NCBI RefSeq assembly: GCF_003018255.1
Contig: NZ_CP027440.1
DNA: 64,000 bases
Source of the DNA: Escherichia coli
GTDB lineage: Bacteria > Pseudomonadota > Gammaproteobacteria > Enterobacterales > Enterobacteriaceae
Direction: 5' to 3' (one strand)
Part shown: one piece after another, positions 45,101 through 48,100 of the stretch
Numbering within the stretch: the first letter of the stretch is position 1
Layout: each line of letters starts with the position of its first letter
Made by a program: the position numbers

Positions 45101-48100
45101 ATACCGCCAATGAAACCAAACGGGTTACGTGAAGCTTCCAGATAAACCGGCGTCGCCCCCGCCTGAATCAGCGCGCCGTGATGATTCGACTTATGGTTGT
45201 TACGGTCGAAGAGCACCAGATCGCCACGCGTTAACAGCGCATTCGTCACTACTTTATTCGCTGCCGATGTGCCGTTCAGCACAAAATAGGTTTTATCGGC
45301 ATGAAAGACTTTGGCTGCGAATTTCTGCGCATCTTTCGCCGATCCTTCATGAATAAGCAGATCGCCCAATTTTACGTCAGCGTTACACATATCGGCGCGA
45401 AAGATGTTCTCACCAAAGAAATCGTAAAAATGGCGTCCGGCAGGATGCTTTTTAAAGAACGCACCATGTTGATGTCCAGGGCAAGCAAAGGTGCTGTTGC
45501 CCATCTCAACGTACTGCGTCAGCGTGTCATAAAACGGTGGCAGCAAATTCTCTTCATACTGACAGGCTGCGGATTCCAGCTCCAGCCACTGCTGCTCGTT
45601 GCCGTTGATTACCGCCGTAACGCCCGCAGGTAATTCAACAACATGTTCGGAATACAAAAACACCGGTAGATGAAAACCGGTGCGCTTAAGCAACGCAAGA
45701 ATGCCACTGCGGCTATCCGCAGCGGTAATGACGACTGCCGCGACGTCCGTAAAATCAGTATCTCCCAACGCCACCACGCGGCGATGAGTAGAAAGTCGGG
45801 ATACCAGTTCACTACTGGCGGCAATATTCATTGATTTCATAAGCGCAAAACCCGTTTCGGGGAAGTAAGAATACCGGACAAGGTGTAAAACCCTGCCCCA
45901 TGAGATATGGGTCAAACTGGTCACCAGCTCCGACCGCCAGACATCAGTAAAAGCAGAAACGCTCTGATTTTACTGTTGTCCTGCAGTGAGCGTGCGTTAA
46001 CTTCACCGCATGAGCAGAAAAGGGAAGGAGTTTCGCGCGAAACGGCGATAAGCGAGAGAATGTAAGGAGGTGGAGTGCATCGAGCAAACTCCGTACAGAG
46101 AGGAGAAAATTCGCGCAATCATGGCACCTTTCACCAGAGCGTGCAAGCCAGGACTTTGCGAACAAACAAGCCATCGAAGGTGCCAAACGGTCATAATAAG
46201 AAAATCAGACAATGCAGCTAACAGGAACTCTTGTGGTCATCGGTCCTTTTATCAACGCAAGTGCAGTATTACTGGGTGGCGTTCTCGGTGCACTCCTTAG
46301 TCAACGCTTACCGGAACGTATCCGCGTCTCCATGACATCAATTTTTGGTCTGGCATCGCTGGGGATTGGTATTTTACTGGTGGTGAAATGCGCCAACCTT
46401 CCGGCGATGGTGTTAGCAACCTTACTCGGTGCATTAATCGGCGAAATGTGTCTGCTGGAAAAAGGCGTCAATACCGCGGTCACCAAAGCACAAAATCTGT
46501 TTCGCCACTCACGTAAGAAGCCAGCGCATGAATCTTTTATTCAGAATTATGTCGCGATTATTGTCCTGTTTTGCGCCAGCGGCACCGGGATCTTCGGGGC
46601 GATGAACGAAGGGATGACCGGCGATCCGAGTATTTTAATCGCCAAGTCATTTCTCGATTTCTTTACGGCGATGATCTTCGCCTGCTCGTTGGGTATTGCG
46701 GTGTCGGTAATTAGTATCCCATTACTGATCATCCAGTTAACGCTGGCGTGGGCTGCCGCGCTGATATTACCGCTGACCACACCGTCGATGATGGCAGACT
46801 TCAGCGCCGTAGGCGGTTTATTGCTGCTGGCAACCGGATTACGCATCTGTGGCATTAAAATGTTCCCGGTGGTCAACATGCTTCCAGCACTCCTTCTGGC
46901 AATGCCCCTTTCCGCCGCCTGGACCGCCTGGTTTGCCTGACAATGCGTGCATTAGCGGCAAAGTGATGATAGATTGTGCAGTCTGCAGTAAATTGAAGAA
47001 ATTTGATTGACGAGACGAGGCGAATCAGGTTTAATGCGCCCCGTTGCCCGGATAGCTCAGTCGGTAGAGCAGGGGATTGAAAATCCCCGTGTCCTTGGTT
47101 CGATTCCGAGTCCGGGCACCACTAATTCTTAAGAACCCGCCCACAAGGCGGGTTTTTGCTTTTGGCTCTGACAATAACCTTCACGAAAAAAATTAGCTTA
47201 TAAAGTCTGGGGGAATTACTCTCGCCACGTTAACGAGAGTAATTTTATTGATATTAATCTCCTGATACTTTACCCCCGTCCAAATTCCAGCCGCTGCACA
47301 TTCACCATTCCAGGCTTCTCACCTGCGCTGACATCAATTTGTGTCACCCGCAGCGCATACTTTTCATCCAGTGCTTTTAACCAGTTCAGCAGGTCATTAA
47401 ACACCACCGGATCTATCCAGACCTGAATATTCTCCCCGCGCTCAGCTATTCGCTTGATGACCACAGAGTGCACGGAAGCGCTGTCGCTGATGACCCGCGA
47501 TACCTGTGCTGGCGTTGTCGTGCCGGATTTTCGCGCTGCAATAATATCCGGCGCGGCGTTCTTCAGTCGGGTGTTCATTGCCACCAGCTGCTGCAACATC
47601 GTCTCCTGTTGTTCTATCCGTTCGCTCAACGGCTGCCAGATGAGGACGTAATATCCGACGCTAAACAGGAACACCACCGCTGCCAGTAACATGCCCTTTT
47701 CACGCGGAGAACGCCCCGCCAGATGTTGTGTCAGCCAGTGTTCGCCACGGCTTAACTGGCGTTCACGCCATTGCTGAAAATAGTGAATAAATTTATCGCG
47801 TAACATGTTATTTCCTCCGCAACGTTACGCCGCCGGAAACCGCATCACCCTCTTTCTGTAACGCGTCCTGTTGCACAACATAATCTGCCGCCAGTGCGCT
47901 ACGCAGTTTGTCGAAGCTGGCAAAGTTCGCAGCCCGTAGCTGGAGGTGAAGCGTCTGGCGTTTTTGATCAAAGGTGAAACCACGCATTTCGATGTCGGTA
48001 AGTGACGCTGATTTCAGGGTACTGGCGATCGCTGACAATTCTGCGAGCAGCCGGGTATCGTCGGCCTGCGGGCGATATTTTTTCAGCGCCATCGTCACCT

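Follow-up and report, generated by a model that had tools for sequence, protein, structure and literature searches.

Between pheV, a gene for tRNA-Phe, and gspM, the last gene of a type II secretion operon, lies a perfect inverted repeat, and the question raised by this locus is whether it serves one of the two transcription units that converge on it, acts as DNA, or has no function at all. The window considered here is a stretch of 64,000 nt of Escherichia coli (contig NZ_CP027440.1), to which all coordinates refer. The repeat (47214-47244) consists of a left arm, AATTACTCTCG (47214-47224), a 9-nt loop, CCACGTTAA (47225-47233), and a right arm, CGAGAGTAATT (47234-47244), which is the exact reverse complement of the left one. 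The arms of 11 bp are 100% complementary, exactly as had been claimed in the preliminary description of this DNA. The element is supported by its sequence, its fold, its conservation in E. coli and its presence as a single copy, and no strand is assigned to it. It begins 92 nt beyond pheV and lies 25 nt beyond the stop of gspM, whose ORF ends at 47270; the 26 nt given earlier is one too many.

On the + strand, yqgA (46212-46940) is followed by pheV (47046-47121; anticodon GAA), which is recognized by ARAGORN and by the Rfam tRNA model (68 bits), and then by the intrinsic terminator of pheV (47130-47168), made up of a GC-rich stem (47130-47158) and of TTTTTGCTTTT. Converging on it from the - strand, gspM-beta, also called yghD (47270-47806), is an ORF matching the NCBIfam model NF007274 (YghD) with an E value of 1e-122. 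It is the last of 14 co-directional genes forming the operon sslE-pppA-gspS-gspCDEFGHIJKLM, whose ORFs reach 63738, and the sizes of the ORFs found between 47270 and 63738 agree with those of the annotated cluster of L015. The spacer between the two convergent units is 148 nt long, RefSeq annotates no feature under the repeat, and pheV has no genomic island inserted in the window. A promoter scan of positions 46800-47500 revealed no sigma-70-like site, which makes a role as a small RNA gene or as an operator unlikely. When the covariance models of Rfam 15 were run with E values of up to 10, only tRNA passed. The sub-threshold overlaps with the repeat were dismissed as noise: P9, on the - strand, scores 15.3 bits for a gathering threshold of 43, and rli52 reaches only 47205.

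RNA from either strand is predicted to form a stable hairpin. The + strand RNA reaches -16.3 kcal/mol (z -3.6), with the 11-bp stem extended by two G-U pairs. The RNA of the gsp (-) strand reaches -16.1 kcal/mol (z -4.4), and none of 200 shuffled sequences was as stable. On this strand, G-U pairs that were missed in the preliminary description shrink the loop to 3 nt and thus produce a 14-bp stem. Only four of the eleven pairs of the perfect stem are G-C. For perfect repeats of at least 11 bp with a spacer of 3-20 nt, the chance expectation per 64 kb ranges from 0.27 (analytic) to 0.42 (Markov-1 simulation); at least one such repeat occurs in 28% of simulated 64-kb windows and the actual window holds three such loci, one of them the speC terminator. 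Considered alone, the repeat is no more than mildly unusual. Its location in the 148-nt spacer between convergent genes makes a chance origin less likely, though still possible; within the small intergenic fraction of the window, about 0.05 chance repeats are expected.

On neither strand does the repeat qualify as a canonical intrinsic terminator. This was assessed with a discriminant of the d'Aubenton-Carafa/Lesnik type, which was calibrated on terminators within the window. The discriminant is +25 on the + strand and -2 on the - strand for the pheV terminator, +53 and +45 respectively for the speC terminator, and -17.5 (+ strand) and -46.7 (gsp strand) for the inverted repeat. The contrast between -46.7 and the +25 to +53 of real terminators indicates that, on the gsp strand, the hairpin lacks terminator character. 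The stem of an intrinsic terminator is expected to be G+C-rich, with about 5-14 bp and a loop of 3-8 nt; the repeat has 11 bp of which only four are G-C, and a loop of 9 nt on the + strand or, with the G-U pairs, of 3 nt on the gsp strand. The terminator scan accepts loops of up to 8 nt and, owing to the 9-nt loop, did not call the repeat.

The sequences flanking the stem also differ between the strands. In the gsp direction the stem is followed by CCCCCAGACTTT, which contains no U-tract; the earlier statements that this strand has no clean T-run and that the element is no textbook intrinsic terminator are thus confirmed by the tail and by the discriminant. When the tails are judged as U-tracts, that of the gsp strand (CCCCCAGACUUU) does not qualify and that of the + strand (UUAUUGAUAUU) does so only in part. 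On the + strand, the stem continues directly into the T-rich TTATTGATATT and, if the AU-rich base of the stem is opened, AUUUUAUU offers six U in eight positions. Like the strong terminator of pheV itself, this T-rich tail had been overlooked in the preliminary description. The tail and the C-rich, G-poor, rut-like tract that comes after it (47245-47324, recognized by base composition, + strand only) run antisense to the 3' end of gspM; the 80 nt following the stem contain 28 C and 8 G, with a C/G ratio of 3.2-3.5 over 60-80 nt. On the gsp strand, a CCCCC run (47209-47213) lies directly 3' of the hairpin, the C/G ratio after the stem is 3.5 over the first 20 nt and then falls to 1.0-1.3, and an A-rich tract precedes the stem. 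Read in reverse, the pheV terminator is a borderline terminator for the gsp strand, about 60 nt beyond the hairpin.

Among 5,426 complete E. coli genomes, 2,512-2,513 possess the repeat, in a median of one place per genome and two at most. Over 49 nt centred on the hairpin, 2,427 of the 2,512 carrier genomes have the same sequence; the variants found among the sampled haplotypes include a C-to-T change in the loop and a G-to-T change just outside the stem (47212, strain EC974). The other 59 nt of a 108-nt spacer (47162-47269) display four common SNPs, all of them outside the 49-nt hairpin region. In the sampled haplotypes, none of the 22 stem positions varies by substitution, for about 1.5 expected and a spacer divergence of about 4-5%. 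This invariance is suggestive, and statistically non-significant at the shallow divergence of E. coli. Larger changes are known: IS679 is inserted inside the 5' arm in UMNF18, and LA3 and MEW carry IS1 at or in the element, so that IS insertions and deletions are tolerated there.

A scan of 241 million metagenome records for the exact arms matched 38 contigs, all of them at the same pheV/yghD locus, and no relative of the repeat was found in viral contigs or in phage and plasmid collections. The single "plasmid" match corresponds to a 4.8-Mb E. coli record. Within the window, there is no other exact copy of an arm and one match with a single mismatch, at 13880. Since it is single-copy everywhere searched, the repeat is not a REP, a BIME, a MITE or another dispersed repeat. 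The hairpin was seen in no species other than E. coli, and there it was confined to the capsule-free allele of the pheV-gspM junction.

The alleles of this junction can be delimited precisely. The gene yghD is carried by 4,284 of the 5,426 genomes, and 1,548 genomes have a wholly different flank, in which the stop codon of yghD is precisely the point where homology is lost. At the other end, next to pheV, the homology shared with a kps strain spans the terminator and ends at 47169. As judged from its gene content, the alternative flank is the group 2 capsule locus (kps). For example, in GN03449, yghD is followed by about 1 kb of non-coding DNA, by two ABC-transporter genes that read as kpsM and kpsT, and then by region 2 genes. 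The published order of pheV, kps and the type II secretion system agrees with the kps-type flank (PMC10272209). The gspM stop codon is also where homology ends in further Escherichia genomes: Escherichia sp. E1V33, E. coli E69 and E. whittamii have kps flank types, and E. albertii has a third type. The segment proper to the capsule-free allele, as defined by the limits of homology with kps-type strains, is AT-rich (34% GC), extends over 100 nt (47170-47269, no strand assigned) and shows no similarity to kps-type loci, plasmids or phages.

The hairpin is located 44 nt from one breakpoint (47169/47170) and 25 nt from the other (47269/47270). An insertion site for kps was rejected, since these are the breakpoints and the kps loci contain no half-site. 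The islands integrated in pheV use the last 19-23 nt of the tRNA gene for recombination (PMC11537424), and in island-bearing strains, e.g., CRE1493, attR, the terminator and the hairpin are all retained next to yghD. An att site of pheV islands was likewise rejected, since attR corresponds to the 3' end of pheV, beyond which the hairpin is intact. The idea that the repeat marks the junction between the tRNA locus and the secretion cluster therefore holds as far as its location within the junction segment is concerned, but not in the sense of a breakpoint. As for the comparison that had been suggested with strains lacking the full gsp cluster, K-12, whose cluster is truncated, keeps the hairpin unchanged, which shows that the hairpin is not tied to an intact gsp cluster.

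The flanks of gspM that are not homologous to the capsule-free one each carry their own stable stem-loop on the gsp strand, about 30-50 nt past the stop. This is the case for the kps-type flank (E. coli, Escherichia sp. E1V33, E. coli E69, E. whittamii) and for the third flank, that of E. albertii. The hairpin of the kps-type flank is unrelated in sequence to the repeat. Its GGTGAG/CTCACC core is invariant in five lineages while its surroundings have diverged, and two of its pairs show compensatory changes. No annotated gene converges on gspM in the kps-type flank, so that the hairpin present there can only serve the gsp strand. The recurrence of hairpins across flanks provides the strongest argument for a benefit of a 3' hairpin to the operon.

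In K-12 MG1655, the hairpin corresponds to positions 3110534-3110564. The gsp operon of this strain is truncated, its gspL being a pseudogene, and H-NS represses the gsp cluster, which is presumably silent in K-12. An absence of 3' ends in K-12 is therefore informative for the + strand only. The published K-12 lists of Adams et al. (2021), which comprise Term-seq 3' ends and Rho regions, contain no 3' end at 3110534-3110575 on either strand. The preliminary description had regarded read-through with no 3' ends at this position as evidence against its proposal; this is formally what the K-12 lists contain, and for the gsp strand it is uninformative because the operon is truncated. The same lists place a Term-seq 3' end, that of pheV, at 3110443, and they give a Rho-termination region with a peak at 3110486, which is the end of the T-run of the pheV terminator (Rho score 7.36, p 3.6e-54; Adams et al. 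2021). Upstream and downstream of 3110486, there are 4606 and 50 reads without bicyclomycin, and 3667 and 293 reads with bicyclomycin (Adams et al. 2021). The drop from 4606 to 50 reads implies that the pheV terminator removes about 99% of the + strand transcripts. Read-through past this terminator increases about 7-fold with bicyclomycin; the transcripts that escape the terminator are Rho-sensitive at some point in the 800 nt that follow.

The explanation that we favour, while stopping just short of calling it probable, is that, once transcription has terminated at some point downstream, a 3' stem-loop devoid of a U-tract sets the end of the secretion-operon mRNA and protects it. The palindrome would encode a stem-loop in the 3' UTR of the T2SS-beta operon, close behind the gspM stop. 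With no U-tract on the gsp strand, this hairpin would not itself halt RNA polymerase; transcription of the operon would pass it and be terminated later, by Rho or else at the pheV terminator read in reverse, which lies about 60 nt downstream. PNPase and RNase II, exonucleases that proceed 3' to 5', would then shorten the RNA as far as the base of the -16 kcal/mol stem, and the stem would thereby fix and protect the 3' end of the mRNA. Both the formation of a 3' end at this place and the protection of the RNA by the stem are what we infer from the features described above. Since the genes converge here, the hairpin also folds in the rare read-through RNA coming from pheV, and the same palindrome may act on the + strand too.

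Dar and Sorek (2018, PMC6061677) described stem-loops lacking a U-tract at the ends of E. coli transcripts whose termination depends on Rho. The stability of the gsp hairpin, its lack of a U-tract and the C-run after the stem fit this class of Rho ends. Of the readings offered in the preliminary description, an RNA stability element is the best-fitting one; that of a mark of the operon 3' end agrees with the position of the repeat. Some observations speak against a protective stem-loop. The K-12 lists contain no 3' end here, although in that strain the operon is truncated and presumably silent, and the invariance of the stem does not reach significance. The bias of C over G on the gsp strand extends over only about 20 nt, so that a rut site would be weak there, and UMNF18 tolerates IS679 in the 5' arm. 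Furthermore, the A-rich tract before the stem is how a + strand element would look from behind, and Rho-dependent ends do not typically have such a tract (Dar and Sorek 2018, PMC6061677).

It is possible, although we find it doubtful, that the palindrome has no selected function and that it arose by chance or mechanically (e.g., by template switching) in the AT-rich filler of the capsule-free junction, its apparent conservation only reflecting the close kinship of E. coli lineages. The frequency of such repeats in simulated windows, the non-significance of the stem invariance at this level of spacer divergence, the restriction of the element to E. coli and to the capsule-free allele, the tolerance of IS1 (LA3, MEW) and IS679 (UMNF18) and the lack of a transcript end in the K-12 lists are all in line with this. 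It is less easily reconciled with the low number of chance repeats expected in the intergenic fraction of the window, with a position that is the usual place of 3' hairpins, with the common SNPs of the spacer all falling outside the hairpin region, and with the hairpins found at the same relative position in unrelated flanks, one of which shows compensatory changes. A role on the + strand, where the hairpin would form a second barrier behind the pheV terminator, either as a weak back-up intrinsic terminator or as the stem-loop protecting a Rho-terminated read-through RNA, is unlikely. It would keep antisense transcription from a highly expressed tRNA gene out of the secretion operon. The T-rich tail with its six U in eight positions, the rut-like 80 nt that come next, a discriminant less negative than on the gsp strand (-17.5 versus -46.7), the fact that the terminator scan missed the repeat only through its loop of one nucleotide too many, and the 7-fold effect of bicyclomycin on pheV read-through in K-12 argue for such a role. 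However, the discriminant is still negative when compared with true terminators, the pheV terminator leaves little to be stopped, no + strand 3' end is listed at MG1655 3110565-3110575, and the bicyclomycin effect could stem from antisense promoters within the H-NS-silenced cluster. Besides, a + strand role leaves the gspM hairpins of the kps-type and E. albertii flanks unexplained.

A broader proposal, which we consider highly improbable, is that the repeat is a two-way insulator selected in capsule-free E. coli, which would cap the gsp mRNA and, together with Rho, block pheV read-through, and whose origin would be de novo, within the 100-nt filler that replaced kps; in a still remoter version, it would be a DNA site for a still unknown protein. 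If the insulator existed, read-through from the highly expressed pheV would be kept from silencing the operon through antisense RNA or polymerase collision. That the repeat acts at the DNA level, as the operator of a dimeric regulator or as a recombinase core, perhaps for the exchange of the capsule locus or of pheV islands, has very little chance of being correct. By geometry alone, two 11-bp arms with a 9-bp spacer resemble loxP, FRT or dif, and the region is one of frequent genomic exchange. Nevertheless, pheV islands use the 19-23 nt of the tRNA 3' end (PMC11537424), leaving the hairpin intact outside attR, and the kps breakpoints lie outside the spacer of the repeat, with no half-site in kps strains. 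Moreover, no second copy was found in E. coli genomes, plasmids, phages, the 241 million metagenome records or viral contigs, and no promoter-like site is present nearby to be regulated.

If the protective stem-loop is real, the hairpin would define the 3' boundary of the T2SS-beta operon (sslE-gspM), and one more protective 3' stem-loop without a U-tract would be added to those known; this would be of little import beyond annotation. In pathogenic E. coli, it is through T2SS-beta that the heat-labile toxin and SslE are exported. The more useful by-product is the exact description of the alleles of the pheV-gspM junction, i.e., a 100-nt filler with the hairpin versus the kps locus. With breakpoints just past the pheV terminator and exactly at the gspM stop, they provide a simple marker that distinguishes capsule-free from group 2 capsule backgrounds.

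Compared with known systems, the repeat is an ordinary, previously unannotated element of a known kind. It shares with the pheV att site and the kps insertion site the 148-nt spacer, where gene exchange is known to be frequent (PMC11537424, PMC10272209), but it lies 92 nt past pheV, outside attR, and at neither of the kps breakpoints. Like REP and BIME, it is an extragenic palindrome at the 3' end of a gene that could block exonucleases; unlike them, it is single-copy and AT-rich, without REP-like sequence or Rfam match. As some intrinsic terminators do, including bidirectional ones, it occupies a spacer between convergent genes and has a T-rich tail on the + strand, whereas its four G-C pairs out of eleven, its 9-nt loop, the absence of a U-tract on the gsp strand and its negative discriminants set it apart from them. 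The closest likeness is with the stem-loops of Dar and Sorek. The repeat differs from these by a C bias that is short on the gsp strand, by an A-rich tract upstream, by a better rut-like tract on the opposite strand, and by being known as a predicted fold rather than from a mapped 3' end. What it has in common with them is to be a stable stem-loop near a stop codon that is not followed by a U-rich stretch on the gsp strand, as is the rule for that class, with a C-run downstream and no relation to REP sequences.

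The gspM allele of the window and the spacer that adjoins it appear to have different histories. Among 5,426 complete E. coli genomes, the best identity found for gspM (47270-47806), the last gene of the type II secretion (gsp) operon, is 96.5%, and most of these genomes share only 90-95% identity with it, whereas the adjoining spacer (47162-47269) is 100% identical in some strains. Furthermore, one strain matches 47000-47400 at 99.5%. From these identities, the contrast between gene and spacer suggests a recombination breakpoint within gspM and the presence of a divergent gsp allele in the window.

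The pheV-gspM spacer is also a recurrent target of insertion sequences (around 47190 and 47217 in window coordinates; comparison loci L003, L010 and L057). LA3 and MEW carry an IS1 at about 47190 together with a deletion of gsp genes, and UMNF18 carries an IS679 within the 5' arm of the hairpin, the 11-bp inverted repeat located at 47214-47244. On the pheV side, the longest ORF of yqgA starts from the ATG at 46212 and encodes 242 aa (46212-46940), compared with 708 nt (235 aa) for K-12 yqgA in RefSeq; it matches no NCBIfam model (E up to 0.001).

Adams et al. 2021 reported by Term-seq an "orphan" plus-strand 3' end at MG1655 position 3111489, antisense to yghE/gspL, which corresponds to about 48169 on the plus strand of the window if colinearity with K-12 is assumed. 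This 3' end implies that, in K-12, the gsp cluster is overlapped towards its 3' end by an antisense transcript.

Two other perfect inverted repeats of the window were scored with the intrinsic-terminator discriminant (d). The 12-bp repeat located directly downstream of speC (43668-43703), which served as a positive control for terminator scoring, is by its score a strong bidirectional intrinsic terminator (d of +53 and +45). The palindrome at 14343-14384, made of 13-bp A/T-only arms (TATTTTATTTTTA and TAAAAATAAAATA) around a 16-nt G+C-rich centre, does not reach the score of a terminator with this discriminant. It precedes the start of a 147-aa ORF (13889-14332, minus strand) by about 10 nt, in the intergenic space between divergent genes, and could act as an operator or form a structure in a 5' UTR.

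Other hairpins are found in the gspM flanks of other strains. In strains carrying a group 2 capsule (kps) locus after gspM, a stem-loop different from that of the window lies about 50 nt beyond the gspM stop (L002:2915-2965, minus strand; equivalents in L011, L012, L013 and L015). It is conserved, with a GGTGAG...CTCACC core and two compensatory pairs. It separates the secretion operon from a region of about 1 kb upstream of the gene read as kpsM, and may shield the capsule region 3 promoter against gsp read-through. The flank that follows gspM in E. albertii is of a third type, unrelated to the other two, on a contig that stops 185 nt beyond the gspM stop; its G+C-rich hairpin, ACGCCAGCC-GGATAAG-GGCTGGCGT (L014:3570-3600), loosely resembles a REP element.
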